Source: Hormiphora californensis
Taxonomy: Eukaryota > Animalia > Ctenophora
Length of the DNA stretch: 64,000 nt
Assembly (NCBI GenBank): GCA_020137815.1
Contig: CM035351.1
Location: forward strand, 434,001 to 498,000
Reading direction: 5' to 3'
Shown: piece after piece, positions 2,772-53,499 of the stretch
Layout: the number at the start of each line of letters is the position of its first letter
Position numbering within the stretch: position 1 is the stretch's first letter
Position numbers and translations under genes: made by a program
The notes under the pieces: model-generated
The model's database searches: none
Seen by the model: only the letters and a program-made list of their open reading frames with translations
What the model was told of the DNA's origin: nothing

Positions 2772-4956
2772 ATGTCTACTGGCGAAGATGCGAAAGAGTA
2801 TGCAGAAGAAAAGGGCAAAGAGTTGGCGAATATTTTAGCGGGTGTATCATGTGAATTCGCCACCACGGCAACTTTGACTATCACAGAGGCTCCAAAGCTC
2901 TTGTTCAAGGAAGGCGATGATCCAGATTTCTCTTCGGTGATGTTGGCCCACGACAGCAAGGAATTGGAGAAACAAAAAGAAACCAAGAAAAACCGTGATG
3001 AGGCAGCTAATGCGTTTATGTATGGTGCAGATCCAACAATGATGGTTAACCGGAATGCAGCACTAGCAGAACAGCTGGGACGATTTGAATCGCTTAGAGA
3101 AGCCATGCCACAGGCATCATTTGGCCATGGATCAAAGGTGAGTGAATTACCATGTCAATTTCTAGCCACTGTGTAAACTTGATCTGGAGTTTTCTACTTG
3201 TCCTTGTCCCCTTATTTTCGACCTTTCGAATTTCACCACTACATCTTTTCTCTGTCTCTAAAGTTTTTAATTTATCTAACCAAAACTTTTCACTTTTCAG
3301 ACAAAGTGTGACACTGGTGTTCGTGATGCACTACAACTAACAGCTGATACATTTGAAGTCATGGTGAACCTAAGTGGGAATGCATCGTCTCTGAATTTGG
3401 GTGATGCATTAAAAGATTCAGGAGTTCTAGAAGAGGTTCAGAAAAATCTGGGAATTGACTCTGAGAGGTTTGACTTGGTTGCTGAGCAGTACAGTCTCAA
3501 CATGTACGGGAAAGGAGGCCACTTCAAAAAACACAAAGACACCCCTAGGGGGAGTGACATGGTCGGTACTCTGCTTGTTCAACTGCCTGGAGCCTATTAC
3601 GAGGGTGGGGCTTTGGAGATATCCGTTGGAGATGGTCTGAAGAAAAAAGTGGTGTTGGAAGGGCATCCATCGGTTTCAAATCGTTCCTACTATCGGCAAC
3701 AAGTTAAATGGCAGTTACCTGATCCTACCAAGCTTCGTATTGCCGCCTTCTTCTGTGATATTGATCACGAGGTTTTGGAGGTTGAGGAGGGGTTACGCCT
3801 TACAGTTGCATTTATTCTGCGAATCAAAGAAAAGATTGCTGCAGAGCTTCAAACGTCGGATATAAACAGTTACTGTCCTACCAAAAAGTCTCAGCTCGTC
3901 CGAGAAGGAAACTACATTAGCTGGGAAGTTTGTGGATCTTTGCAATGACGAGGCATTCCTTCCCGTGAACCCATTGAAAATCGATGTAACTAATCAATGG
4001 CAAAGAGAAAGTGGCTATACACGATTTGAGGAACGCCCGATATTTCTTGCATTCCCCTGCTTCCATCTCTACACAAATTCACAAGTTTTCACCAAGAAGA
4101 CAGAATCTGCCGCGACCCCTTTGACATCTACCCAGGTGGCTATGCTCAAAGGAAAAGATGCCGTCGTTGGTAAAGCAGTGTTGGCTGCCTCTGAAAAGAC
4201 TGGTGGTGCAGTCAAGATTTATCTTCAACCGCTGGTAGATCATGACTACACCGATCAAGCTGGTGGTTCTTACCTAATGCCAAAGTTCCCTACTCCAAAG
4301 TTTAAAGTCCCCCGTCGGATGTCAGATGATACTATCGAAACCAAGTTTAAGACGACTGGATGTTTTGAGGATATTTGGCCCATTTGGGTACTTGATGAGG
4401 AAGTTAGGCCATAAACCAGACAAAATTAGGCGGCTGTGAGTGGAATTCTGATGGCTATTTCGGCAACGAAGCGTCTTACATCGATTTCTACGTCAAAAGC
4501 TTTCTGCGAGTTGAGTTTGCACCTTCTGTGCAGAACGAAGAAGCTGATTCAAAAGGCACGAGATCAACCTAGAAAGGTCAGCCGGGCGCCCTGCTGCCCA
4601 AGAGAAAAGCTAACATTGCCTGCTGCTAACCAAAGCCGAAGAAAGCCAAAATGGATAACCCAGGACACTTATGTTATGAGTCGTGGTACAAGCCCAGGAT
4701 TAGAGGCAAGGAGATGGCTGAGAAAGATGCCCCACCCCCTCTAAGCGCGGGTAAAGGGATATCAAAGTATTTTGCCCCTGCCCCTCTGGCCACTCTGGAA
4801 AATGGGCTATCAAAGACGGCTGCTAGGCCGAAAAGGTCATGTGCTCGAGCTGTGAATAAACCTAGTGAGACTGATAGTGAAACCGAAAGTTCAAGCGAGA
4901 GTGAAAAAGAGAATAACTTCTATGTGAGTGAGTCTGATGACTCTGATTGGAGCTGA
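2772..4956 (+). CDS. 2OG-Fe(II) dioxygenase copy 1 (2 exons; several 1-bp frameshifts, either errors or pseudogenisation; 3' end uncertain, 4744 or 4956)
   Basis: Exon 1 2772-3137, GT-AG intron 3138-3300. Motifs QASFGHG/TKCDTGVRDALQL, YSLNMYGKGGHFKKHKDTPR (HxD), EGGAL, FCDIDHEV (distal His), GLRLTVAF (2OG-binding Arg), GYFGNEAS. Frame breaks near 3870, 4400-4430 and 4590-4670 relative to copy 2. Confidence 0.8.
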
Positions 4957-5271
4957 TTGACTTCAGCTAGGGCCACAACTGAGGACCCAACTCTGTAATT
5001 TATTAATTTTAATCCCTTATTTATCACAGTAAATTATCACACAGTAAATTATCCCAGTATCTTATATCCCAGTTACGTAACTTATCACAATTTATCAAAT
5101 TAACTTATTATTTTTCAGTAATGGACAATCGAATTTTAACCATAGTTTATTTTAATTCTCTTCGGAAATGACGAAATGAAACAAATTGATTTTTACGACA
5201 GTTTATAAATGTTTTTAAATTTTCTAAATTAATAGAAATACGGTTGTTTTACTCATCCCATCTTCCCCTTG

Positions 5272-6612
5272 TAAGCCTGTCAAAACGTGTTTCAACCTTG
5301 AAGTCACGAGAGGCAAGCCAATTCCGGTTGTACATCCTAGGTATAGGTCTCCTGAACATAAAAAACCAAAATGTCAGTCTCAATTATTTGGGGGAAGGTG
5401 TGTAATTAGCCCCTAATTGATTGGTAATTGAGCACAAGGGGAAAAAAGCTGTATCTACCCTTAGGAAAGGAGTAGAGACAAAATTAAGGGCACCAAAGTG
5501 TTCAGCGTCCTCGCATTAGTGGGGGTAGGTGCCGGAATGAAGTCTCTATCTCATCTGGTTAATTAGATAATTGGATAATTAGGTATGCGCATAGCCGTTT
5601 GCTGGCCATATGGCTATAGCCATGTTAAGAAAGGAGTAGAGACAAAACAGAGGGCACTAAAATGATCAGCGTCCTCGAATTAGTGGGGGTAGGTGCTGAA
5701 ATTAAATCTCTATCTCATCCGGTTAATTAGATAATTGGATAATTAGTTTTGCGAATAACCGTTTTTAGGCTATATGGCTATAGCCACTTAGGAATGGTTT
5801 AGAGACTTTTCATTGGTGCCATTTTGTAGGCAATGGCCAAGTTATGGGGGGTCGACGTTGGACTTTTAAGCTCTATCTTCAACCGTTTAGCCGTTATTTG
5901 GCTTTAAAGGTGCTCAAAATGAGCAAAAAACGGTAAAAAGCCCGATTTTTGCTCATTTTCAGCACCTTAAAAGCCAAATAACGGCTAAACGGTTGAAGAT
6001 AGAGCTTAAAAGTCCGACGTCGACCCCCATAACTTGGCCATTGCCTACAAAATGGCACCAATGAAAAGTCTCTGAACCATTCCTAAGTGGCTATAGCCAT
6101 ATAGCCTAAAAACGGTTATTCGCAAAACTAATTATCCAATTATCTAATTAACCGGATGAGATAGAGATTTAATTTCAGCACCTACCCCCACTAATTCGAG
6201 GACGCTGATCATTTTAGTGCCCTCGGTTTTGTCTCTACTCCTTTCCTAACATGGCTATAGCCATATGGCCAGCAAACGGCTATGTTCATACCTAATTATC
6301 CAATTATCTAATTAACCAGATGAGATAGAGACTTCATTCCGGCACCTACCCCCACTAATGCGAGGACGCTGAACACTTTGGTGCCCTTAATTTTGTCTCT
6401 ACTCCTTTCCTAAGGGTAGATACAGCTTTTTTCCCCTTGTGCTCAATTACCAATCAATTAGGGGCTAATTACACACCTTCCCCCAAATAATTGAGACTGA
6501 CATTTTGGTTTTTTATGTTCAGGAGACCTATACCTAGGATGTACAACCGGAATTGGCTTGCCTCTCGTGACTTCAAGGTTTGGCCAAAAATCGACACGTT
6601 TTGACAGGCTTA
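5272..6612. mobile_element. 1.34-kb foldback (near-perfect palindrome) element
   Basis: TAAGCCTGTCAAAACGTGT at 5272 and ACACGTTTTGACAGGCTTA ending at 6612. Arms are complementary throughout to a centre near 5930-5945, each has an internal duplicated block, and the element is flanked by direct repeat CTTG (5268-5271, 6613-6616). Confidence 0.9.
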
Positions 6613-6690
6613 CTTGGCACAGTCACAACTAAAACCCGAATCCCTCCCTTTACTTTCTACCCCTCCCATTTGACCCTGCTTTAGCTCAAC

Positions 6691-8658
6691 ATGTCGACTG
6701 GTGAAGAAGCAGAGGAGTATGCGGCAGAAAAGGGTAAAGAGTTGGCGACCATCTTGGCTGGGGTGTCATGTGAATTCGCCACCACGGCAACTTTGACGGT
6801 TACAGATGCTCCGACGCTCTGGTTCCAAGACGAAGTTACTCCAGATTTCACCTCAGTGGTGTTGGAACCAAACAGTGTTATCGTTGATGACTACATTCGC
6901 GAGGCATTGGAGAAACAGACAAAAGAAAAGGAGAAATGTGAACTGGAACGTAGACTATGGTCGTACAAAGAGAAACCAGAAGCGTTGATACGCCGTGATG
7001 GAATACTTCTAGAGCAGCTAGATCGGTTCGAAAGACTACGGGAAGCTATGCCACAGGCATCATTCGGTCACGGATCAGAGGTATACTTTATCTGGCATTA
7101 TATTAGTCTTTTCTGATCGTACTTTGGGCACATCGTATGCAACGTAGTCGTGCCACCCCCGTACGATGTCTCTGATATCGTTGGCAGCTTGGCTGCCAAA
7201 ATTGTAATTGTCCCACTACTCTTTTCACTTCTCTGTCTCTAAAATGTTTCATTTCAGACGAAGTGTGACACTGGTGTTCGTGATGCACTTCAACTACCAG
7301 CTGATGAATTTGAAGTCACTGTGAACATAAGTGGGAGTTCATCCTCACTTGATTTGGGTGACGCATTGGCAGCTTCTGGAGTCTTAGGAGAAGTTCAGAA
7401 AAATCTGGGAATTGACTCTGATAGATTTGATTTGGTCGCTGAGCAGTACAGTTTAAACATGTACGGGAAAGGAGGCCACTTTAAGAAGCATAAAGATACC
7501 CCTAGAGGGAGTGACATGGTCGGTACTCTGCTTGTTCAACTACCTGGAGCGTATTACGAGGGTGGGGCCTTGGAAATCTCCGTTGGCAATGGGTTAAAGA
7601 AAAATGTGGTCTTGGAAGGGCCCAAAAATGTCCCAGACCAGCCTTACTGGTGGCAATGTTTTGCGAACTGGCAGTTACCTGATCCCAATGAGCTTCGTAT
7701 TGCTGCCTTCTTCTGTGATATTGATCATGAGGTTTTGAAGGTGGAGGAAGGATTACGCCTTACTGTTGCATTTATTATGCGAATCAAAGAAAAAACAGCC
7801 CTAGATATAGAGCTTCCATCGTCGGATCTCAACAGTACTGTCCTACCAAAAAGTCTCAGCTCGTCCGAGAAGGAATCAACATTAGCTGGGAAGTTTGTGG
7901 AACTTTGCAATGACGAGTCTTTTCTACCTGTGAACCCATTAAAGATCGATGTAACTAATCAATGGCAGCGAGAAAGAGGCGAAACACGAATTGAAGAACG
8001 CCCGATATTTCTGGCGTTCCCGTGCTTCCATCTGTACACAAATTCACAAGTCTTCACGAAGAAGACGGAATCTGCTAAGTTGCCTTTGACATTGGCCCAG
8101 GTTGCTATGCTGAAGGGGAAAGATGCGGTCGTTGGCAAGGCAGTGTTGTTGGCTGCTGCTGAAAAGACTGGTGGAGCAGTAAAAATCTACCTTCAACCGA
8201 TCTTGGGCCATGACTATACTGATGACGCTGGTGGTTCTTATCTAATGCCAAAGTTCCCTACTCCAAAGTTTAAAGTCCCCCGTCGGATGTCAGATGATAC
8301 TATCGTGTCGAAGTTTAAGACGACTGGATGTTTCGAGGACATTTGGCCCATTTGGGTGTTTAATATGGAATTGGGCCACGAAGCAGACAACATTGGTGGA
8401 TGTGAGTGGAATGATGAGGGATATTTTGGCAACGAAGCTTCCGATATCCATTTTTATGTCAGAAGCTTTCTGCGAGTTGAGTTTGCACCATCTGTGGACC
8501 GAAAGAAAATGATTCAAAAGGCACGAAGTCGACCTAATAAGGAAAACCGAGCCCCTGCTCCCAAGAGGAAAGCTAACATTGCTGCTGCTACAAAGCCGAA
8601 AAAAGCCAAAATGGATAACCCGGGACACTATACTATGAGTCGTGGTTCAAGCCCATAA
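6691..8658 (+). CDS. 2OG-Fe(II) dioxygenase copy 2 (intact, 2 exons)
   Basis: Exon 1 6691-7080, intron 7081-7257, exon 2 open to TAA 8658. HKD...H...R residues intact; ends NKENRAPAPKRKANIAAATKPKKAKMDNPGHYTMSRGSSP. Confidence 0.92.
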
Positions 8659-9036
8659 CTCGTTCAACTGTTGCGAATACACCCTGATATGCCGCTACTT
8701 TCAAGCTGAAAAAAGTTCAGAAAACCGGGATATTTTCAGCAATCGTTTTGTTTTGATGAAAATAGTCAGCAATTTATTTAATAGTTTATAATTCAGAGAA
8801 AACACTTTTTAACTAACTAAGTTATTAATCTATTAACAACGTAGGTACAATATTTCAATTTAAATTACTGAATTTTAAATACTTTTGTAAAATCGTTAGA
8901 ATTGACCATGTTGTGACATCAACGATGTAGTAATTAAATGTCATAATTTCTGGAAATACGAAGCGAACTATTTAGATTGGACATTTTCCGTTTGGGTCAT
9001 CACCCGAAGTTAATTTATTCCGTATAATATCAAACA

Positions 9037-9258
9037 GCTTATCACATTAACTTATCACCACAACTTATAATCACATTAACTTATCACATTAACTTATCAC
9101 ATTAACTTATCACATTAACTTATCACATTATCTTATCACATTAACTTATCACATTAACTTATCACATTAACTTATCACCTTAACTTATCACATTAACTTA
9201 TCACATTAACTTATCACCTTAACTTATCACATTAACTTATCACATTAACTTATCACAT
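9037..9258. repeat. 13-bp minisatellite (CTTATCACATTAA)n
   Basis: About 16-17 directly visible tandem units. Confidence 0.95.
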
Positions 9259-9670
9259 AATCAAATTAATTTCTGTGTAACTTACTGGTTAGTCGAAGGG
9301 ATATCTGTAATTTTGACAACTGAACAGGCGAAATGAATAATATAGTTTTATAAAATGTTTTAATTACGTTTTTAAATTTGTAAGCTTATAAAGTTGTTTT
9401 ACTCATCCCATCTTCCTACTCTTCAATCTACCCCTGACCCCCAATAATAACACCGGCCCACATCGTTGTTGGCATCCCTGCCATCCCATATCCCAATCCC
9501 ATACCAAATGAATTCCCCTGATGTGACTTTTCTCTACCGACTTTGATTGACAGGGCATCGCCAAATTGCTTCATAATATTGGCACAATTTGGCGATGAAA
9601 TGACGCTACCCTGATTTCCCAATGTTTCCAACTATCCTCTAACTCCCTTTTCATGCAACTTTAGTCCAAG

Positions 9671-11793
9671 ATGCCTGGTGATGCAGTAACGGACGCCAAG
9701 GATTATGTCTATGCGATGGAAAGAGGCAAAGAGTTGGCGAACATCTTGGCGGGTGTGGGATGTGAGTTTGCGATCACGGCATCTTTGAAGCTTGCTGAGG
9801 CACCCAGGATCATGTTTAAAAAAGGCAAGTCTACAGTGATAATGGCTCCTGACAACGATAAGATAAAGCTAAAAGTTGAAGACGCAAAGAAAGCAGCAGA
9901 AGAAAAGAAGAATGCTGCTAAAGAAGAAGTTGAAGAGAAATCGTATGATGATTTTGTCGATGAAAATAAACCGGGCTGGATGTTTCACCGTGAAGCGGCC
10001 CTTGCGGAACAGATGGGCCGATTAGCATCACTTAGAGAAGCTATGCCACAGGCAACTTTTGGCCATGGAAAAAAGGTGAGTTGACATCAAATGTTTGTAA
10101 GAATATCTAGTAGGCCTGTTAGCAAATAGCAAGGATAGTTGCACTATGTATTCATAGTGCTGCTTTAAAGGACCAGAAGAGACATGTGAACAATTAGCTG
10201 CAGCAACGTGCACGAAATCAGTTTAATTTTAAATTAAATTTTCGCACTGGATGGTTGTCCTAAAAAATTGACAATTTCTTGTCCCTCGACTGATTACCTA
10301 GTTAATCAAACATGTCATCTTCGAATTCTAACCCTGCTGTGCCTTTTTGCAAAGCAAAAAGGCATCCGGGTGAATTCGGCATTCGCCTGCGAAAGTATCA
10401 TTTATCTAAACAAAGCTTTTCATTTCAGACAAAGTGTGACACTGGTGTGCGTGATGCATTGCAACTGCCAGCTGATACATTTGAAGTAATGGTGAAACTT
10501 GGTGGGAATTCATCGTCTGTTAATTTAGGAGACGCTTTGGCAGATTCAGGAGTCCTAGGAGATGTTCAGAAAAATCTGGGAATTGACTCTGAGAGATTTG
10601 ATTTGGTCGCCGAACAGTACAGTCTAAACATGTACGGGAAAGGAGGCCACTTCAAAAAGCACAAAGATACCCCTAGAGGGAGTGACATGGTCGGTACTCT
10701 GCTTGTTCAACTACCTGGAGCCTATTACGAGGGTGGGGCTTTGGAGATCTCCGTTGGAGATGGATTCAAGACAAAACGTGTCTTAGAAGGGCATAAAACA
10801 ATCCCAAGGTATCCACACCAATGGGATGATTTTCAATGGCAGTTACCTGATCCTACCAAGCTTCGTGTCGCCGCATTCTTCTGTGATATTGACCATGAGG
10901 TTATGAGGGTAGAAGAAGGATTACGCCTGACAGTCGCATTTATCCTCCTAATCAGAGAAAAACAAGTTCCGGAGGTTCCATCTTCGGATCTCAACAGTAC
11001 CGTTCTACCAAAAAGTCTGAGCTCGTCCGAAAAGGAAGCTGTACTGGCTGCGAAGTTTATAGAGCTTTGCAATGACGAGTCATTTCTGCCGAAGAAGCCA
11101 ATGATAGTTGATATTGCTGATGAATGGAGTCAAAAAAGAGGCGAAGAACGACTTGCCAAACGTCCAGCCTTTCTGGCATTTCCGTGCTTCCATCTGTACA
11201 CAAATTCACAAGTCTTCAAGAAAAAGGCTGATTCTGCCAAGCTGCCTTTGACATCAACTCAAGTGGCTGTGCTCAAGGGTAAAGACTCAATCCTTGGTAA
11301 AGCAGTGCTGTCTGCCTCTGAAAAGACTGGTGGTGCCGTCAAGATTTATCTACAACCGCTGGTGGATCACGAATTTACTAAACCAGATTATGAAGGCCGT
11401 GGTCCGTACATGTTGCCAAAGTTTCCGCCTCCTAAGCTCAAAATCCCTAGCCAGATGTCCGATGAATCAATCGAGAAGAAATTCAAAACGACTGGAAATT
11501 TGAGAGATGACATTTGGCCAATTTGGGTATTTGATGAGGAATTGGGACACACGCCTGATATAATAGGAGAGACCGAGTGGAATCATGAGGGATATTTTGG
11601 TAACGAAGCGTCCGACATTGAATTCTACGTTAAAGGCCTTCTTCGTGTTGAGTTTGCACCATACGCAGAACGGAAGAAGATGATTAAAACGGCAATAGGT
11701 CAACTGAACAAGGAAAACCGGGCTGAAGGCTCTAAGAGGAAGGGAAATAGCTCTACCAATTCCAAGGCAAAAAGAGGAAAGAAAACGTCATAA
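9671..11793 (+). CDS. 2OG-Fe(II) dioxygenase copy 3 (intact, 2 exons; lacks the SRGxSP tail)
   Basis: Exon 1 9671-10075, intron 10076-10428, exon 2 open to 11793. Catalytic motifs intact; ends NKENRAEGSKRKGNSSTNSKAKRGKKTS. Confidence 0.92.
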
Positions 11794-12326
11794 TGAACGG
11801 GACTTTTGGTTTTAGTATACATACTATGAAAGTTTAATCGAAATAAAATACTTTTTAATTTAATTTTACATCCATTAAAGTAATTTATTTTTCTGTTTTA
11901 GAATTTTAAGGATTGACAATGTAGTTATTTGGAAAGCTTTCATTCATGCATGATTTAGAGTTGAAAGAAAGTCTAAATAGTTGACACATGGAAGATGATC
12001 ACTGCTTTTTAAAGTTGAATGTTTCTTCACTTTCATTGAGTGCCATTTTGTTTAATTAATTATTTGATGTAACTATTTATACTAGAATTATTTTATTAGT
12101 TTAGGATCGTATCACTCAAGTTCATGAATGAATGTTGTGCAAAAAGTGAAATGAATAAATATGTTTATAAATGTTTTACAATTTTCAATTAAATAAAAAG
12201 TTGTTTCATTATCCCTGGCCCTCTTTTTCTATATTTCCTGACCTCTCTGTTACCTTGCAATCTTAACATTGTACTCCTTTACATAGTCCTAAAATCTCCT
12301 AAAATATTTTCTCTCAGTGACAGATA

Positions 12327-14296
12327 ATGTCGGATTCTGAGAGTTCATCATCTGAGTATGATGATACAGTAAATAACGCTGAGAAGAGAGGATCAGGAAA
12401 CGATTTGGAGAAAATAGTAGAGTATGCTGAGGGGAGAGGGAAGGAATTGGAGAAAATCCTAAATGAGATATCGTGTGAGTTTGCAACTACGGCATGCTTG
12501 AAGCTCAGTGAGGCCGCCTAAACTCACGATAAAGCCCCCTGCTGGTTCCGCAAAAAGTGACGAAGATCTTGTTCCATTGGGTACTACACTGGTGGTGGGT
12601 CCAAACGATGCTGAAATTGCTAAGGGAATACGGAAATATAGAGATGAGAACCCGCTTAAATTAAAAAAGAATGGACAACCGTGTAAGATTCAACCGAACA
12701 AGAAACCAGACTGGGCGATTCGCCGTGATGCGGCACTTGCAGAACAGATGGGCCGATTTGCACCACTTAGAGGGGTCATGCCACAGGCAACTTTTGGTCA
12801 TGGAAAGAAGGTGAGTGCTCTAATAGATTGGGCCAAGTTATTTAGCATTGTGGTCCTCTTCTTCTGTCAATCTGACTTTCAGAACTGTTATGATACTGTT
12901 GAATTTTGCCATTATTTTTCTGGTGCTTCTGCTCTTAACCCATTCTTTTCATTTCAGACAAAGTGTGACACTGGTGTGCGTGATGCATTGCAACTGCCAG
13001 CTGATACATTTGAAGTAATGGTGAAACTTGGTGGGAACGCAACACCGATGGCTCTGGGTGACGCATTAGCAGCCTCAGGAGTTCTAGGGGAGGTTCAGAA
13101 AAATCTGGGAATTGACTCTGATAGATTTGATTTGGTTGCTGAAGCAGTACAGTCTCAACATGTATGGGAAGGGAGGCCACTTCAAGAAGCACAAAGACAC
13201 CCCTAGAGGGAGTGACATGGTCGGTACTCTACTTGTTCAACTACCTGGAGCCTATTACGAGGGTGGGGCCTTGGAGATATCTGCCGGAGTACTGAAGAAA
13301 AAACTGGTCTTTGAAGGGTACAAAACTGTTCCAGAATATTCGTACGGTTACCATTACATGCCAAGCAGTTTTGACTGGCAGTTACCTGATCCTACCAAGC
13401 TCCGTATTGCAGCCTTCTTCTGTGACATCGACCATGAAGTTTTAAAGGTTGAGGATGGATTACGTCTTACTGTTGCATTTATTATGCGAATCAGAGAAAA
13501 ACAAGTTCCGGAGCTTCCATCGGCGAGTCTCAACAGCGTAGTACTTCCAAAACGCCTCAGCTCGTCCGAACAGGAAACCGCTTTAGCTGCAAAGTTTGTG
13601 GAATTCTGTAATGATGAGTCATTTCTACCTGAGGAAGAAGACCTCTCTACCTTTCTTGCGTTTCCGTGTTTTCATCTCTACACAAACCAACAAGTTTTCC
13701 CAAGTTACGTAGACTCTGCTGAAAATCCGTTGACCGAGGCCCAAGTGGCTAAGCTAAAAGGAAAGGACTCAATCATTGGCAAGGCAGTGATGGCTGCTTC
13801 TGAAAAGACGGGTGGTTGTGTTGAGATATATCTTCAACCAATGGTAGATCACGAGTTTGCTTCAGAATATGGTGGTGCATATCTCACGTCACAATTCCCT
13901 GGTTACTGTGGTTCAGAAAGAATGGACGACGATGCCATTGAGAAAGAATTTGAACCGATTGGACACTTTGATGAGAAGTTTCAGCCCATCTGGGTTATCG
14001 ATGAAAAAATGGGCCACAAGCCTGGTGATGCTGGGGAAACTTATTATAGTCCGGATGGGTATTATGGCAACGAAGCATCTCAACTCGAATTTTATGTCAA
14101 AAGCCTTCTTCGGGTCGAGTTTGCACCTTATGCAGAAAGGAAGAAGATGATTGAAGAATACAAGGAGAACTGTGTCCGTGGCGTTAAGCGGAAAATAAAC
14201 ATATCTGCTACTTCGAAACCAAAGAAACTAACGATACGTAAACCAGGCCGTTACGATCCCGACCGCTTTATTGTTAGCCGTGGTTGCAGTCCCTAG
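12327..14296 (+). CDS. 2OG-Fe(II) dioxygenase copy 4 (two 1-bp insertions, possibly sequencing errors)
   Basis: Exon 1 12327-12810 with an extra G near 12513, intron 12811-12957, extra A near 13142 (GCTGAAGCAG versus GCTGAGCAG). Catalytic residues intact; ends RYDPDRFIVSRGCSP. Confidence 0.85.
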
Positions 14297-14764
14297 TTTG
14301 GGCGTTGAGAGCAGACGGGCATTCCCTGTGAAGTAGGCTTGTGAGACCATGGTTTTTAATCAATTATTTATTTTCAAGAGACAATACTTTTTATTTAAGT
14401 TATAACACAGCGTTAAATTAAAAAATACTGATTTAATACTTATTTTAATTCAATTTAAATAACCTATGTTTATTATATTTTTTAAATCAATCAACTGTTT
14501 ATATTAAAATTAAACCCTGCGTTTACTCTGATCTCAAAACCCCCGGCCCCTCTAGTCTGTATTGACACCAAATAGTATAAGACATTGTGCACTACATGTA
14601 CAACCCCATGACATCTAAAGATAGTTTAACATTCTCCAAATATACACCACAAAGTGTGTCCACAATCCCCTTCCTCCAGCTCCCCTTTCTCCCACCCCTT
14701 CCAGAAGTTATCTGAGTTCTGACCCACTAATTTATTAACAACTCAGTCCATATTATAGCCCAGG

Positions 14765-16766
14765 ATGTCTAGAGATATAATAAAGTATGCTCAGAGGCGA
14801 GGCAAGGAGTTGGAGAAAATTCTGTCTGAACTATCGTGTGAGTTTGCAACAACTGCATGCTTGAAGCTCAGCGAGCCGCCTAAACTCACAATAAAGCCCC
14901 CTGCTGGTTCCGCAAAAAGTGATGTTGTCCCTTTGGGTACTACGCTGGTGTTGGCAATATAGGACAAGAAATGCAGAAACTGCAAGATGAGAATCAAGAC
15001 TGGGAGATTCACCGGGAAGCGGCCCTTGCAGAACAGCTGGAAAGATTTGCACCACTTAGAGAAGCTATGCCACAGGCAACTTTTGGTCATGGAAAGAAGG
15101 TGAGTTTTTACTTCTCAACCAAGTTTTTTAGCCCTTTAACGAAGGGTAATTTCAATTAGTTTCTTTTATGTTTGAAATCTTGTGCTTCTTACCAAAACTT
15201 TTCACTTTTCAGACAAAGTGTGACACTGGTGTTCGTGATGCATTGCAACTACCAGCTGATACATTTGAAGTAATGGTGAAACTTAGTGAGAATGCAACAC
15301 CACTGACATTAGGAGACGCTTTAGCAACTTCTGGAGTCCTGAATAAAGTACAGCAAAATCTGGAAATTGACTTTGATAAGTTTGGCTTGGTCGCAGAGCA
15401 GTATAGTCTAAACATGTACGGGAAAGGTGGCCACTTTAAGAAACACAAAGACACCCCTAGAGGGAGTGACATGGTCGGTACTCTACTTGTCCAACTACCT
15501 GGAGCATATTACGAGGGTGGAGCTTTGGAGATATCTGCAGGAGATGGTTCAAAGAAAAAGGTCTTGGATGGATATAAACTTGGCAAAAAATGGCAGTTAC
15601 CTGATCCTACCAAGCTTCGTATTGCTGCATTTTTCTGTGACATTGACGAGGTTATGAAGGTTTTGGAAGGAATACGCCTTACAGTTGCATTTATTCTGCG
15701 ACTCGAAAATATGGCTCCAGAGCTTCCATCTTCGAGCCTCAACAGAGTGGTGCTACCATGTCTTACCCCATCTGCACAGGAAACAGCTCTTGCTGCTAAG
15801 TTTGTAGAATTCTGTAGTGACAAGTCCTTCCTACCGGAGACACTCCATCGCCCGACCTTTCTTGCTTTTCCGTGCTTCCATCTTTACACGAACCAACAAG
15901 TCTTCCCGAGTCATGAAGACACTGCCGAAGTTCCCCTTACCAAGGCTCAGGGCCAGCGTTAAAATCTGGGTGTTTTGGGAGTGCTGACAAACGGTTTTTT
16001 AGGGCTAGGGCTAAAGTAGGGTTAGGGTTAGGGTTGGGGTTTGGGTTGGGGTTAGGCCTTGACATTCCCTACCAGATAAACTTTGAATCAGCCAAAACGG
16101 TTGAGTGGTTTGGCGGTTAGAGCCATTTTAGTGAATCAACTTTTTTGGCAGCGCGCACCTGTAAACAGGCCTCCAAACACCCAGATCGTAACGGCGCCCA
16201 AGGCTCAGGTGGCAAAGCTCAAAGGAAAAGACGCAATCCTTGGCAAAGCCGTGTTGTCAGCCGCTGAAAAGACTGGTGGTTGTGTTGAGATATATCTTCA
16301 ACCCATGGTGGGCCATGAGTATTCTTCAGTAGATGACGGTGGAAATGGTGATTACCTTACGCCACAATTCCCCAAGTACTGTAAAGTTAGAAGAATGGAC
16401 AATGAAGACATAGCCTCACATTTTGACTCCATTGGACATTTTGATGAGGTATTTGATCCCATCTGGGTGATCGATCAGGAGCTGGGCCACAAGCCAGGCA
16501 ATGCCGGGTATACTTGGTGGAGTGCTACTGGTTACTATGGCAATGAAGCAGATGTCAACTTTTACGTTAAATCCTTTCTCCGGGTCGAGTTTGAACCTTA
16601 TACGAAACGCAAGAAGATGATGCAAGGAAATAAGGAGAACTATGTTCCTGGCTCAAAGAGGAAAATAGACATCTCTGCCACCTCCCAACCAAAGAAAATT
16701 CAAATCTGTAAACCAGGGCGTTACGATCCGGCCCGCTATAGTGTTAGCCGCGGTTGTAGTCCCTAG
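14765..16766 (+). pseudogene. 2OG-Fe(II) dioxygenase copy 5, disrupted
   Basis: Stop/frameshift near 14960, intron 15100-15212, distal His codon deleted (FCDID-EV), MITE inserted in exon 2 at 15950-16199. Ends RYDPARYSVSRGCSP. Confidence 0.8.
15950..16199. mobile_element. 250-bp MITE with internal telomere-like repeats, inserted in copy 5
   Basis: Target duplication AAGGCTCA (at least 8 bp; boundary ambiguous) on both sides. Imperfect TIRs GGGCCAGCGTTAAAATCTGGGTGTTT / AAACACCCAGATCGTAACGGCGCCC. Removing it restores LTKAQVAKLKGKD. Confidence 0.88.
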
Positions 16767-17311: not shown

Positions 17312-24392
<7,081 letters not shown>

Positions 24393-27300
24393 CGGGGTCT
24401 TTTGATAACATGTGGGTGCTGCAGCACTAGCTAACTTATTCTGGGGTTTGTAGTAACTTTGATATGGTAACTGTTACCATGGTAACACACCAAGTGTTTG
24501 GTGCGCTCTATAGACTGATGATATATCGACTCAGGGGAGAGGGAGAGAGAGATAGAGATAGAGATGGGGAGAGAGAGATAGGGAGAGATAGAGAGAGAGA
24601 GAGAGGGAGAGAGAGAGAGAGAGAGGGGGAGAGACTAGAAAGGGGGAGAGAGAGGGAGGGAGAGAGAGATAGGGAGAGATAGAGAGAGGGGGGAGAGAGA
24701 TAGAGTTAGGTGGGAAGAGAATGGGATTTTTGAGATACTGTTGTCATGTTACCGTCCGTCAAGAAACTGTGAGAGATGAGTCATGAGGTATATATCGATG
24801 ATACTCTGTTACTCAACAACTACTCTGTTACCAAACAGATGCGTGTTAGAGTTATATAACTAGTCAATAACTGATGCTTCACCACCTTCCCGTTTCTCTA
24901 CAGTATTAAGGGCAGTAGAAGTTGATGGGCATGGAGCGAGCCTGGTGGCGCTAGACCCTGTTTCTAACATTGGGCTTAGAGCGGGGTCTGCGTGACTGTG
25001 TCACCAAGTATTTTCCGTGTTTTTGTGAGTGTGTTTGTGTGTGTGTGTGTGCGTGTGTTTGTGTCTCTGAATATGGCGATAAAGTGTTTTTTATCTTTAA
25101 TAAGTTGTAGGTGTCCTTTTTAAGCAGTTTTTATTCACTCAACAAAGCAATAGATCTGGCCTCACATCCTGTTAAATGCTAGCAATCCATGTAATACTGT
25201 ACTAGGTTATATTTGATTCATGAGTGTGTGTCACGATAGTTGCAACATACACCTTATAATGTGTAATGAGATAGTTGCGTCATTCCGTCACACCTTGGAT
25301 CGCACTTTATCGAGTTCTAAATATATCTCGCTAGACAGGGACGTAGTTCTCACCGCTACTACCTGGTAGCTGAGCCCCAATATTACTGTCAGAGCATTGG
25401 CCTGACCCTATTCTCACTTCTTTCGCGTGAGAACTGTGGTCAGTGTCGAGCATTGGCCTGACAACAATATTGGGGCACTACCACCCTGTTAAGATCGAGA
25501 GAGAAATAGAACTTGTTTACCCTTCCTTACACCCATTGAAAGAAAACATTATTTGTGGAAATAATATATTTTACTAAGACTGTGGGATGGTAGAATATCT
25601 GGACATATGTTCCCCGTGGTTTGTCTCCTCTCCTATCTCATGTTTTGGTTGCCATGGTAACATGATAGTTACCATGGTTACCATTACATTGACAGAACGG
25701 AGGTAACCAATATATTAGCACAGCTGATCCCGTAGCATTGCTACAAAATTTAAGAACAATTTAAACGTTAGTGATAGGTTTTTTAAAGAAAGTAATATCC
25801 GAAAAAAGTTAAAAGTAATGGTTTAGTTGTATTAGTACCAGGCAAAGTATAATTTTGATAATATGATCTACCCTGTTACCCACTATAGCGATCTGCTAGA
25901 AGGTAAAAGAGGCACCACGGAGACGTCTTCAAATGTTCAAATCTTGGTGTCTCCTGGTGGCTCTTGATCAGTTTTGGATCGCTATACACCGATAGTCGGA
26001 TTATCTGGTAAAGAGGGTTTTTTACCGTGTTTTTGCCAGATGAAACTGGGATACTATAACAGGAGTTGTGACAACTTCTGGAGTTAGCTGAAAGACTATA
26101 AAACAGGAGATAGTCCTCAGAAAATGACCTATACAAAACAACACCTGAGGATGAGAGAGAGAGATGTGATAGAAATTAGGGATTGTATCCGATTGTATCA
26201 CTAAGTTTTTTAGTTGTGTAACTTGTTTGTAACAGTCCCTTTCAAGCAGCAGCTTATACTGTTGTCATGAGGCAGTATGAACATATTATATGCCAAGGTG
26301 TGGTACAGTAGAGGTACTAGCCAGTACTAATATACTAGTAAACAGCGTGGAACTAGTTTATACCAATTTCTTTTGGTCACAGTGATTTGTCCTTGTATCT
26401 GTTTTCTGTTACGTAAGATAGATCTCTCAACTTAACAAAACTTTTCTTTTATTTTTGAAAACATTTGGAGTGGCGTCTGTGACCCCCAATTCCCGGGTGC
26501 CTTTCCAGCGCTTATTTTGGCACGCGCAATTATGAAGCCGCGCACAATTTCTTCTTTTAGGTGCGCGCGCTAAAAATGGGATCGCGTCGTGAAGCCAAAA
26601 ATTCTGTTTCGCCCGCCAGTTTTTTTAGTTTTTTTGCTCGTGAGTCGTGTCGAGACTCGAGTCCCGCGTGCAGTCTTGACCTGAAACGCGTCGCCAGCGT
26701 ACCCAGAAGAATTGTTGGCATGTGCTGCAGTCCCTGTTCGATCCAGGAACTGTATCGTATGCCAACACATACTTGAGACAGTTTTCTAGACAGCGATTCA
26801 GACAAAATGCTACTCAAAATGCTACTCATTCACCTTAATCCATATAATAAATTCCATAATGTTAGTCAGTCTGTCCGTTAATTGGTTTTTCAAACTCCTC
26901 CCACAGTTTTTGAGCTAGACCCCTGAAAATTTGTACACTGGTACCTTGGACCAAGGCGGATGTAAGTACGGGCTCAGATTTTTGATCCGATCTTTACAGC
27001 AGTGACGTCACGGGGTGACGTCATTGCGACAAAAAGACTTACATTTTTCAAACGCTTCTAAGACCCTGAAAACGGCTCTAAATCAAAAAACTAACGCAAT
27101 AGTGGGGAAAGAGAATCGTTTGAACTTCATTTTACTTGATAGCGATTTCCCGTAACTCAATGTTTAAGGGTCGTAAATCGCGTCGGGAAAGTTAAAAATG
27201 CCAAAAATACGATATTTTTCACCGTAGCCACCCAAAATCTTATCCAATCGATATGAAACTTGGTCGTTATGTGAATTTTAATGTCCTTTGGCCAGGGGTT

Positions 27301-29341: not shown

Positions 29342-29949
29342 TTAAAGATTATCTCCCTCTATAGAACTTAAATACTAGTTTAATATAATTATTTTACTAC
29401 ATTTTATTTTACGTGATTTCTATTTTATGTTTTCTACTACAATTAAATCTCATTCCTACTGATCTTTAAATCAAATGATGTATTGTATACTGTTTTACTA
29501 CTGTATACTGTTTTTTTACTAGATCATTATACAATACTGTTTTATTACCACAGTTTTACCGCTGTATACTGTTTCAACACTGTATACTGTTTCAACACTG
29601 TATACTGTTTTACAATATTTTTATACTTATTAAATTATACTGTTGATTTTATTCTATTAATTAACTTATTATTACCCTTCAATCAGCATATTTTATATTT
29701 CTATCTACTATTTATTAAAACTTATCTACACTTATTTTAAATCTTAACAGCATTAACTTATCTACACTATTTTATCTTATTAATTTAATCACTATCATTA
29801 ACTTAATATCCTATCAGCAGCATGCCCATTTTAACCTAATCTAACTACCTTTTCATTGAAAACCATCACAAACAGACTATCTTTTAATGTTCAAAACAAT
29901 CAGAGTACCAGTTATTTAGCACGCAAGAAGGTGCAATATTACATGTTAT

Positions 29950-32900
29950 ATGTCCACTGACACAGGGAAACTCCAGGAAATCAGGGATAATGGATGGGAT
30001 ATTTTCTCATGCCCCAGAGGAGACAGAGGAGGTGGCGGGATCGGAATTCTTTTTCGAGATGGTATAGTTCTTCGGCAGTGTCCGGTAAAGACCAAGTATA
30101 AGTCATTTCAAGTTCAAGAAGTTCTCATCAGTGACAGGGACCAACCGAAGAGAATCTGTAACATTTACCGCCCCCCATACACACCGAAGTCAAGACTTAC
30201 GGAGGCTACTTTCCTATCAGAGTTTGGTGACTACCTCTCTGAGCTTGTTATGAAGCAAGGTACTCCGATTATTGCTGGAGACCTGAATTTCCAGGTGCAA
30301 GATGATAACAACTTCTATTCAAGGAAACTGTTGGAGCTCCTGGATTCGTTTGACCTTCAACAAAGGGTACCGCTGTTGCCTACTCATAGGCATGGAGGAA
30401 CCTTGGATCTGGTGATAACTACGAGAGAAACTGCTCTGGATGACATATCCATCTTTCCAAATGGTACTACTTCAGATCACTTCCTGGTACGGTTTGGGAT
30501 TCAAGTGAGACCTGACCTGTCTAACTCCCGTCTGAAGAAATCAGTGTTTCGAGAATATGTGGACTACAAGTCAATGGATTTGGAGGGATTTAAAGAGGAC
30601 TTGAGGAAAGCAGATTTTGAGGAAGGGAGGGATCCAGAGGAGGGTGTTGTGAACTTCTATCGTTGGCTGGAAGGGATAGTGGAAAAGCGAGTACCGAGGA
30701 AGCGGGTGAGGACGGGGAAAAAGTTTAAGCCGTGGAGGGATGAGGAACTTAGAGGATTGCTTCGTGAGAGGAGGACTGCAGAACGGTATTGGCGAAAACA
30801 TGGGACTGAGGATGCAAAGCGGAGATTTAACGATCTGAAGAAACTGTATGGAAATATGGATAAAGAAAAGAGGTCACTTTTCATCAAAGAGGACTTGGAT
30901 GCAGTCAAAGGAGATCCGAAGAAACTACAAAATAAGCTCCAGAAACTCCTGGGAAAGGCTGAAACTATTCTCCCTGAAACAACTAGCACTAAGAGCTTGG
31001 CGGATGATTTCTCACAGTTTTTTAGCTCTAAAGTGACTAAAATTCGGAATCAAGTTAACGAAGAACAGCAACAAGCTGGTGACTTTGAGGAACCTGGAAG
31101 AAATTGTCATGCAACGTGGAAGGAATTCAGAGAGGTATCTGAGGAGGAACTTGTCTCAATTGTGAAGTCTATGTCAAGTAAACATTGTGACCTTGACCCC
31201 TTGCCCACTTGGGTAGTGAAGGAGTGTATACGGGACCTTGCTCCTGTATTGACATCGATAGTCAACCACTCTCTCCAGCAGTCGACAGTAGCAGAATCTC
31301 TCCAGAAGGCGATCGTGTTTCCTACTATTAAGAATATCTATGGAGATCGGGAAGCTCTCAGTAACTATCGGCCTGTTTCGAACATCCCATTTCTTTCTAA
31401 GCTTCTTGAGAAGGTAGTTCTCACGCAGCTGAATGACTACCTGGATAGCAATTCTCTTTTGGGCAAGCATCAATCCGGTTACCGTGTTGGGCACAGTTGC
31501 GAAACTCTGTTAGCCAGCATGTTTGATGATGTACTAGGCGAGATGGATAAAGGAAACGTAGTAGCTCTTATTTGTTTGGACATGAGCGCTGCGTTTGACA
31601 CAGTGGATCACGGAAAGTTGTTAGAGGTGTTGCAGAATCGGTTCGGAGTGGATGGTGATCCTCTTCAATGGTTTAAGAGCTACCTGAGTTCTAGATCATT
31701 TAGAGTCTCAGTCGGTGATTGTCTCTCGGATACCCTGGCCTTACTATGTGGAGTACCCCAGGGGTCCCTTCTTGGTCCAATTTTGTTTCTACTTTATATT
31801 GAAGCTGTGCAAGATATTGTGGAACCTTATGGTCTTCGGATAAAGCTATATGCGGATGACTCCCAGCTCTATGTGAGTCTGGTCCCTACGGATTCTACTG
31901 GCTGGTCTGAGGCAAAGGTGGATATTGAGGAGTGTTTGGCGAGGGTAAAGAGGTGGATGGTAGGACAGTGGTTAAAATGCAACGAGGCTAAGACAGAATT
32001 CATCCTGCTTGGAAAGCGCAGTTCGTTAAGTAAAGTCTCTTTTGATCCAGTCATCAGCTTTGGGGGAACGGAAATTTTTCCTAGTGAATGCAGTGGAACA
32101 GATGGTAAAACCCTGGGAATTCTCTTGGATCACAATTTAAATCTCGAACGTCAGGTTAATAATGTGAGGAAACAGTGTGGACTGGTATTACGGAACCTAT
32201 GGCAACTACACAAATGTTTTGATGTCACAACAAAGATAATGTTGGTCAAACAATTGATCATTTCGAGGATTGACTACAGTAACATTCTGTATTATGGACT
32301 TCCTGGCCGAGTTCTCAGTGGGCTCCAGAAACTCCTTAACGCCTGTGTTCGCTTCATATTCAACATCCATGGGCACCAAGAGGATTACATGGAATACTTC
32401 AGGAAGTGTCATATTTTACCGATCTCCTACAGGCTGGACTTCAAAGCCTGTCTAATCGCCTACAAAATAGTCTATGGAACAGCACCCAGTTACCTCCAGG
32501 AAATGGTGCCACTTGATGGCAGTTGGGGTCTCTCCAGGACAACAAGGATGACTAATGTTACTGATCCGTACAGATTGAAACATCCGAAGATGACCAGTAT
32601 CAACGCCAACTCTAAGTTGAGACGCAGGAGACTATCGGTATTTCTACCTAATGTTTGGAATGGACTACCCCTTGAGCTTAGGTCAATCCCCAACGTCGAA
32701 ACCTTCAAGGCCCGCCTGAAAACACATCTCTTCGTTGGTGCATTTGGAGTGGGTGATGGGGAACCCATGACTGAGTTGTAATGTTTGTTGTAGTTGTGGG
32801 GCCTGCGGGCAATCAGTGTCAACCTCTCTCTAGCCATGTTATTATTTCACTACCTAGTATCCTTTTTCCTAGCAGGTGTAAGTAAAGTGTGTTTAATTTA

Positions 32901-34404: not shown

Positions 34405-53499
<19,095 letters not shown>

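Follow-up and report, generated by a model that had tools for sequence, protein, structure and literature searches.

A tandem family of 2-oxoglutarate oxygenase genes, likely of dinoflagellate-related origin, in the ctenophore Hormiphora californensis

Two transferred genes for Fe(II)- and 2-oxoglutarate (2OG)-dependent oxygenases, ML012034a and ML005129a, were reported from Mnemiopsis leidyi by Hernandez and Ryan (2018), with eukaryotic donors given as not known in the accessible text of that paper (PMC6005172). As described there, they are single genes found across ctenophores, and ML012034a is intronless with its best match in Pythium. In the present work, a 64-kb stretch of Hormiphora californensis DNA (hereafter the window) was analysed, and five paralogous genes of the same superfamily, all on the + strand, were found in tandem at positions 2772..16766. 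Taken together, the array is a real, old and selected tandem expansion of an oxygenase, probably dinoflagellate-derived, in a pleurobrachiid ctenophore. As far as the available account of ML012034a and ML005129a goes, these two and the array are alike in being ctenophore 2OG-Fe(II) genes of eukaryotic, non-animal origin that lie among intron-rich host genes and have no assigned function. The array, however, comprises five copies with one common intron, and its sister group is formed by Amoebophrya and Polykrikos; set apart in this way by description, the array family appears distinct from the two Mnemiopsis genes. A preliminary description of this DNA had spoken of an undescribed system, which is too strong for one uncharacterised enzyme family in several copies, and it had missed that transferred ctenophore 2OG oxygenases were already on record (accessible part of PMC6005172).

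The two-domain plan and the motifs of the array are also found in a microbial PF13640 family with a C-terminal Y.GN motif, made up of fungal, algal and bacterial hypothetical proteins, presumably PANTHER PTHR33099. A comparison by hhalign gave 99.8% to a Seminavis member of this family, and the nearest Atlas clusters were fungal hypothetical PF13640 proteins (score 0.96-0.97); no characterised member was found in the searchable literature. The array itself belongs to a separate branch, marked by the motif HKDTPR, with dinoflagellates, diatom-like algae, Planctomycetota, Acidobacteriota and Myxococcota. With the PHD/EGLN hydroxylases (HIF-PHD, PPHD, PiuC and Tpa1/OGFOD1; PF13640) it shares the double-stranded beta-helix and the HxD...H plus Arg set (structural Z scores of 10-12.8), but it differs from them in its low identity (12-20%), an extra C-terminal domain of 225 residues and a basic tail. 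Orthology to animal HIF-PHD, collagen P4H or OGFOD1 was rejected, as there was no PDB sequence match at E<=1 with copy 2, structural identity was 12-20% and the nearest relatives were protist proteins. AlkB and TET/JBP resemble the array in catalytic chemistry and in the kind of substrate proposed below, and they are likewise fused to nucleic-acid-binding domains; in contrast to the PHD-type enzymes they gave lower structural scores (AlkB Z 9.5, NgTET1 Z 7.8, with the fold in common), and Pfam assigns the array to PF13640.

Ctenophores also have isopenicillin N synthase (IPNS)-like FYY oxygenases (Francis et al., 2015), which are likewise non-heme iron oxidases of microbial look. An RxS motif and a terminal FYY characterise these enzymes, which according to the accessible part of that paper are absent from Pleurobrachia (PMC4488382); the array family has neither feature. 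Nor is the array family described in the available part of a survey of peptide dioxygenases (PMC2938197). No account of the array or the family was found in the literature searched; the genes may stand among the candidates for horizontal gene transfer (HGT) in subscription papers or in the supplements of ctenophore genome papers.

Layout and integrity of the array

The five paralogues were mapped by exon and intron, and the features of the array are as follows.

2772..4959, + strand: copy 1; exon 1 2772-3137, intron 3138-3300, exon 2 3301-4959; frameshifted as assembled
6691..8658, + strand: copy 2; exon 1 6691-7080, intron 7081-7257, exon 2 7258-8658; intact, 596 aa
7489..7758, + strand: catalytic motif of copy 2; His 7489-7491, Asp 7495-7497, distal His 7726-7728, 2OG-binding Arg 7756-7758
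7846..8520, + strand: C-terminal alpha/beta domain of copy 2; motifs C-x-H-x-Y, LKGxD and GYxGNEA
8521..8658, + strand: Lys/Arg-rich tail of copy 2; similar tails in copies 3-5
9671..11793, + strand: copy 3; exon 1 9671-10075, intron 10076-10428, exon 2 10429-11793; intact, 589 aa
12327..14296, + strand: copy 4; exon 1 12327-12810, intron 12811-12957, exon 2 12958-14296; two single-base frameshifts
14765..16766, + strand: copy 5; exon 1 14765-15099, intron 15100-15212, exon 2 15213-16766; broken allele

Each copy has a single phase-0 GT-AG intron directly after an FGHGxx motif, and the site is identical in all five (introns 3138-3300, 7081-7257, 10076-10428, 12811-12957 and 15100-15212); by eye, the introns could be aligned at their 3′ ends only. 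Pairwise protein identity among the copies is 55-75%, far beyond chance, and the exon-2 DNA is 72-85% identical. The profile PF13640 (2OG-FeII_Oxy_3) matched above its curated cut-off in all three exon-2 translations scanned, those of copies 1, 2 and 3 (E about 1e-7 to 1e-8; 32-36 bits against a cut-off of 27), and exon 1 of copy 2 gave no Pfam match. The mapping and these matches bear out the earlier report of a five-gene, same-strand array with one intron at an identical position. No sixth copy was found elsewhere in the 64-kb window by tblastn.

In the assembly, open reading frames run through copies 2 and 3 alone; the breaks in copies 1, 4 and 5 had been overlooked. The breaks were checked against short-read DNA contigs of H. 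californensis, which cover the array from two samples of two studies (runs X1, X3, X5 and X6). Copy 1 has extra bases at 3872, 4403 and 4426 and further breaks in its tail. At 3872 both spanning contigs in X1 and in X3 were one base shorter than the window, and at 4403/4426 the base was missing at all depth in X5 and at about half the depth in X1 and X3. The tail breaks of copy 1 lie outside this contig comparison, which covered 12 of 95 indel rows. In copy 4, with extra bases at about 12513 and at 13143, all depth at 12512/12514 was without the extra base (19.8 + 39.9 of 59.7 in X1, 372.6 of 372.6 in X3 and 433.8 of 433.8 in X6), as was most of the depth at 13142/13144, where paralogue contigs are mixed in. 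The checked breaks in copies 1 and 4 are probably consensus errors, and these two copies are therefore probably intact.

Copy 5 shows an exon-1 frameshift near 14955, loss of the distal His codon at 15647 and a 258-bp insertion at 15940-16197. The loss of the His is real: an X1 contig covering 15617-15880 matched the window with 0 differences and 0 gaps. A second sequence of the copy-5 type from the same sample (an X3 contig, together with the loose end at 15647) appears to retain the distal His, and the 258-bp insertion is bridged by contigs of X1, X3 and X5. Copy 5 as present in the window represents either a null allele or a duplicate of very recent date. The catalytic set HxD...H...R, which had been claimed for all five copies, is thus complete in four of them and lacks the distal His in this allele.

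Age, selection and origin

The host is a Pleurobrachia-type (pleurobrachiid) ctenophore close to Pleurobrachia bachei. The best matches of the array were EukProt proteins of P. bachei, eight gene models altogether, and this was the only named ctenophore among the matches listed. All five window copies have counterparts there at 79-86% identity: copy 1 in the first full copy of model P0019 (79%, with an acidic C-terminal extension in both), copy 2 in the second full copy of P0019 (84%), copy 3 in P0001 (86%), copy 4 in P0013 (86%; 77% to P0005) and copy 5 in P0004 (82%), where the distal His is retained. In P0019 the counterparts of copies 1 and 2 are joined in the order of the window, so this section of the array, at the least, was in place before the two species diverged. 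IQ-TREE set the first part of P0019 nearer to copy 2 (95/87) than to copy 1, so the pairing of that part with copy 1 rests on identity and the common C-terminal extension. A recent origin of the array was ruled out by synonymous divergence (dS 0.6-1.3) together with the one-to-one counterparts, and the array goes back beyond the divergence from P. bachei. One of the eight P. bachei models, P0105 (sb|3464805), is a diverged paralogue that keeps the two-domain plan and has lost the iron-binding motif; it is possibly a pseudo-enzyme.

The ratio of nonsynonymous to synonymous substitution rates (dN/dS, Nei-Gojobori) was 0.22-0.30 across all 10 pairs of copies; the HKDTPR core gave 0.00-0.09, and a short barrel loop of only about 18-28 codons gave 0.33-1.19. 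As judged from these ratios, the copies are under strong purifying selection. The catalytic core would have remained almost fixed, with divergence in the barrel loop, the N-terminal part and the C-terminal domain. Strong recent gene conversion need not be invoked, as dS in the core (0.26-0.63) is below that of the rest yet far from zero; older conversion among the copies may have occurred. Two fragments of the ctenophore clade (P0007 and P0232) come from the merc collection, which is presumably metatranscriptome-derived and would give a weak hint of transcribed relatives.

For the origin of the family, 254 sequences were gathered; low coverage removed 55 of them, and with 6 restored or newly included there were 205 rows for FastTree, from which 54 rows were chosen by hand for IQ-TREE. 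Two larger word-based searches for relatives scored about 8000 candidates each, and names were available for 30 proteins. In the IQ-TREE result the ctenophore rows formed one group (100/100) and were joined, again at 100/100, with three proteins of Amoebophrya AT5.2 and one of Polykrikos kofoidii. This group lay inside a 33-row clade (97/94) with Biecheleria and with clusters holding Breviolum and Extubocellulus members, while the named bacteria (Planctomycetota, Acidobacteriota and Myxococcota) fell outside the algal and protist clade; the 205-row FastTree had the same topology. Two motifs at indel sites were each present in the same 18 of 205 rows, and these were only rows of the ctenophore clade, Amoebophrya and Polykrikos. 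The best non-ctenophore matches were dinoflagellates at 1e-67. A grouping of ctenophores with bacteria was rejected by the approximately unbiased (AU) test (p 9e-6), which also rejected a dinoflagellate-only clade (p 3e-5). Of 9 eukaryote-type loci, among which some carry introns at other places, 7 showed no interruption at the intron site and the remaining two had no visible motif; Amoebophrya was not among these loci. On these sequence comparisons, one transfer from a dinoflagellate- or Amoebophrya-related protist into a ctenophore is likely. The proposal of the preliminary description, a horizontally acquired gene that gained an intron and was amplified, is supported by the tree and by the uninterrupted intron site, but the donor looks eukaryotic (dinoflagellate or syndinian related) and not bacterial or fungal. 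No viral relative was found in IMG/VR, and a metagenome scan with copy 2 gave no match. The long Amoebophrya and Polykrikos proteins (P0022 and P0023) seem to hold a second, degenerate C-terminal domain (P0022 was matched in three stretches), and the Polykrikos sequence might derive from an Amoebophrya-like parasite in the culture.

It is quite unlikely, in our judgement, that there was no transfer into ctenophores and that the gene is instead an ancient vertical one lost in other animals, or one that passed from a ctenophore to a protist. The wider family numbers 8208 representatives at E<=0.001 and includes fungal clusters, ctenophores may be sister to the other animals, and a related Mnemiopsis gene has weak matches in Macrostomum and Folsomia, as given in the accessible part of PMC6005172, all of which would suit such a history; the exclusive motifs and the 100/100 clade with Amoebophrya and Polykrikos inside the algal and protist clade speak against it, as does the lack of any named holozoan or other-animal match among the listed hits. 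Equally to be weighed is whether the array is simply the reported Mnemiopsis transfer ML012034a (or ML005129a), so that only the tandem arrangement would be new. This we regard as improbable. According to the available text, ML012034a is an uncharacterised 2OG-Fe(II) gene with a eukaryotic donor that is not known, is absent from other animals and has a reciprocal P. bachei match of 58% (PMC6005172), a value that lies within the identity range of the window paralogues; but its best non-animal match in the same source is Pythium at 5.6e-77, and it is intronless. No Pythium or Mnemiopsis protein stood among the listed hits of the array, where dinoflagellates were best outside the ctenophores, a comparison by description in which the presence of Mnemiopsis in the database was unchecked.

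Contamination by a protist contig was ruled out by the introns, the neighbouring gene, the P. bachei counterparts and the two samples. The neighbour, an intron-rich p70 S6 kinase gene from 17312 on, agrees with the housekeeping neighbour noted earlier, and since it adjoins the array, the array sits in host animal DNA. Dinoflagellates are among the reported parasites of ctenophores, a possible route of transfer (accessible part of PMC6410321). The locus would thus represent a eukaryote-to-animal transfer with an identifiable sister group, where earlier work on ctenophore HGT left the donor "unknown", and it would show a transferred gene that was retained and amplified under strong purifying selection. 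Should nothing beyond the origin be borne out, the locus would still be a good, if ordinary, case of HGT followed by expansion.

Fold and possible substrate of the enzymes

The iron triad HxD...H and the 2OG-binding Arg are present in copies 1-4 and in P. bachei P0004, and the His, the distal His and the Arg are invariant or nearly so in the rows of 133 relatives. The model of P0004 (predicted local distance difference test score, pLDDT, 88) was compared with solved structures, and residues 25-290 best matched PHD-type barrels: the Trichoplax PHD (6f0w; Z 12.8, root-mean-square deviation (rmsd) 4.4, 181 aligned), the Pseudomonas PPHD (4iw3; Z 12.6) and PiuC (Z 12.3), with PolD (Z 10.3), AlkB (Z 9.5), PasI (Z 9.2) and NgTET1 (Z 7.8) lower. 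By motif, profile and modelled fold the enzymes belong to the Fe(II)/2OG dioxygenase superfamily (PF13640), and turnover is predicted. Sequence searches of the PDB gave no match at E<=1 with copy 2 and only two unrelated weak matches with the 133-row profile; NCBIfam gave only a sub-threshold PiuC-type match, and a PADLOC match was set aside as a generic 2OG profile. The C-terminal domain of copy 2 (225 residues) was modelled alone with a pLDDT of 94. Foldseek found no solved structure for it at E<=0.001, and the best match by VIA over 48,161 chains reached Z 3.2 (rmsd 3.4, 73 aligned), which does not prove a new fold; from the Atlas only hypothetical fungal clusters were returned. The Lys/Arg tail has low model confidence in the P. 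bachei counterpart.

Clues to the substrate came from 130 relatives scanned for domains, which had been picked by hand, favouring long ones, from about 200. A nucleic-acid or chromatin module was found in 26 of the 130 (SAP in 12, PcrA/UvrD tudor in 10, chromo in 2, HMG box in 1 and WGR in 1), against a Sel1 domain, a DUF6398 and a weak acidic match, one of each. Domains of the SAP, tudor, chromo, HMG and WGR types are established binders of DNA, of chromatin or of RNA polymerase. The HMG box belongs to L071, a member of the close algal clade, and is in frame with the oxygenase there; one myxobacterial relative had a weak AbiEi-type helix-turn-helix match. No AlkB or TET Pfam family matched in the exon-2 translations of copies 1-3 or in the 130 relatives scanned. 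Relatives without such a module mostly end in a basic tail. Among bacterial relatives 44 of 46 tails had a net charge of at least +4, with a K+R fraction of 0.29 against 0.11 in the core, and all four window copies with such tails agreed; because bacterial relatives have them too, the tail is not only a nuclear import signal. No NRPS/PKS gene (nonribosomal peptide or polyketide synthase) or conserved operon was seen among 89 same-strand neighbours of bacterial relatives. From the domain fusions, the basic tails and the lack of an operon or of NRPS/PKS genes, oxidation of DNA, or of something that DNA binds, seems the most likely role of the family. A PIF1-like helicase lay downstream, on the same strand, of a bacterial relative in 3 of 57 loci (L031, L032 with HRDC, and L035), too few to be used.

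We tentatively propose, at a shade below an even balance, that the five tandem Fe(II)/2OG dioxygenase genes go back to a single gene, probably gained once from a protist related to dinoflagellates or to Amoebophrya, and that the enzymes, by prediction, hydroxylate a substrate associated with DNA or chromatin. One transferred gene would have gained an intron and then been duplicated in tandem before the split from P. bachei. In the enzyme, HxD...H would bind Fe(II) and the conserved Arg 2OG, and O2 would give rise to an Fe(IV)-oxo species by which the substrate is hydroxylated; hydroxylation by Fe(IV)-oxo is the established chemistry of this fold. The Lys/Arg tail may tether the enzyme to nucleic acid, the role that SAP, HMG, chromo, WGR or UvrD-tudor domains would have in relatives, and the C-terminal domain may help to hold the substrate. 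Of the candidate substrates DNA itself ranks highest, through oxidative lesion repair or base modification, and is a possibility well short of an even chance; a nucleic-acid-bound protein comes next and is rather unlikely. It is likewise doubtful, but conceivable, that pleurobrachiids took from a dinoflagellate or syndinian parasite, and amplified, a dioxygenase that acts on DNA, stands apart from the AlkB, TET/JBP and JmjC classes and binds its substrate through a domain whose fold is unsolved. If so, a route of DNA base modification or oxidative repair new to animals would be at hand, and family members in dinoflagellates, diatoms, fungi and Planctomycetota would likewise act on DNA.

Several points weigh against the proposal. 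The ctenophore, Amoebophrya and Polykrikos proteins have no recognised DNA-binding domain, only the tail, and their core domains are net acidic. The SAP, chromo and tudor fusions stand on more distant branches and are clustered in a few clades, so the count of 26 overstates the number of independent fusion events. Protein hydroxylases gave the best structural matches, with AlkB and NgTET1 ranking lower, and tandem amplification with a variable loop is also typical of detoxification or specialised-metabolism enzymes. As for the origin, the AU groups were named after the trees had been seen, neither the support values (85/53) nor the AU test (p 0.38) separate a nested position of the ctenophores from one as sister group of the Amoebophrya and Polykrikos rows, and an unnamed animal or holozoan sequence may lie further out in the tree. 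Given fusions that are clustered and mostly far from the ctenophore branch, and protein hydroxylases as the closest folds, we hold action on DNA or on something bound to DNA at about an even chance.

With the same origin, the enzymes could instead be small-molecule hydroxylases for detoxification or for a metabolite peculiar to the lineage, for example one used in adhesion or defence, with copies that have diverged in substrate; this is close to the specialised chemistry suggested earlier, and we consider it a minority possibility. Tandem amplification, the near-fixed core and the fast loop would fit it, as would PolD and PasI among the structural neighbours; moreover, the two transferred Mnemiopsis 2OG oxygenases, which are different genes, peak in tentacle morphogenesis as stated in the accessible part of PMC6005172. 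The accessory domains of relatives, however, are nearly all of the nucleic-acid or chromatin kind (26 against 2-3 others of 130), basic tails are retained from bacteria to ctenophores, and no biosynthetic cluster surrounds the bacterial relatives. Of the two options in the preliminary description, macromolecule modification therefore fits the domain fusions better than specialised chemistry does. We give a low probability to another variant of the same origin, namely a PHD/OGFOD1-like protein hydroxylase with a substrate outside chromatin, such as a translation factor or ribosomal protein, in which the tail would bind RNA or act as an import signal. Its top folds are PHD, the Pseudomonas EF-Tu hydroxylase, Tpa1 and OGFOD1, and the weak C-terminal matches lean to the RNA-binding folds R3H, La and Alba (Z <=3.2, not significant); but identity to those enzymes is 12-20% and a common fold shows no function, SAP, HMG, WGR and chromo suggest DNA or chromatin over ribosomes, and the patchy distribution suits a core translation substrate poorly. 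The proposed action on DNA or chromatin is directly testable, as copies 2 and 3 are intact and expressible. Beyond the ctenophores, the array flags a large uncharacterised family of 2OG oxygenases in which the fusions suggest DNA or chromatin and the second domain is without a solved relative.

Neighbouring gene and repeats in the window

Other features of the window adjoin or interrupt the array.

17312..24430 (end approximate), + strand: intron-rich p70 S6 kinase gene; exon 20813-20959 best matches S6K beta-1 (E 2e-18)
5271..6613, no strand assigned: high-copy foldback element, similar to miniature inverted-repeat transposable elements (MITE-like), between copies 1 and 2; 557-nt arms, 99% complementary
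15940..16197, no strand assigned: 258-bp high-copy insertion within copy 5; 12 bases repeated at its ends, TTAGGG-like (telomere-like) runs

The kinase gene starts about 550 bases downstream of the array. The foldback element, which has internal 162-nt repeats and a depth in the DNA runs far above that of genes, is not a member of the oxygenase gene family. The 258-bp insertion is polymorphic, being missing from other contigs of H. californensis. A further run, X7, presumably of RNA, had coverage in the repeats only, which weighs neither way on expression of the copies. A 13-base unit is repeated in tandem between copies 2 and 3 (window about 9045-9260), and a few similar units lie past copy 1 (about 5020-5110).

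Farther along the window, two abutting AT-rich open reading frames (ORFs) of 127 and 274 aa with Cys/His motifs were noted at 46480-47684; they gave no convincing Pfam match and are possibly derived from a mobile element. A long reading frame of Gln/His/Pro-rich repeats at 51481-53499, with no Pfam match, is probably an exon of a host regulatory gene. At 29920-32781 an unbroken ORF of 953 aa encodes an endonuclease and a reverse transcriptase; it belongs to an element of the long interspersed nuclear element (LINE) type, which may be young.

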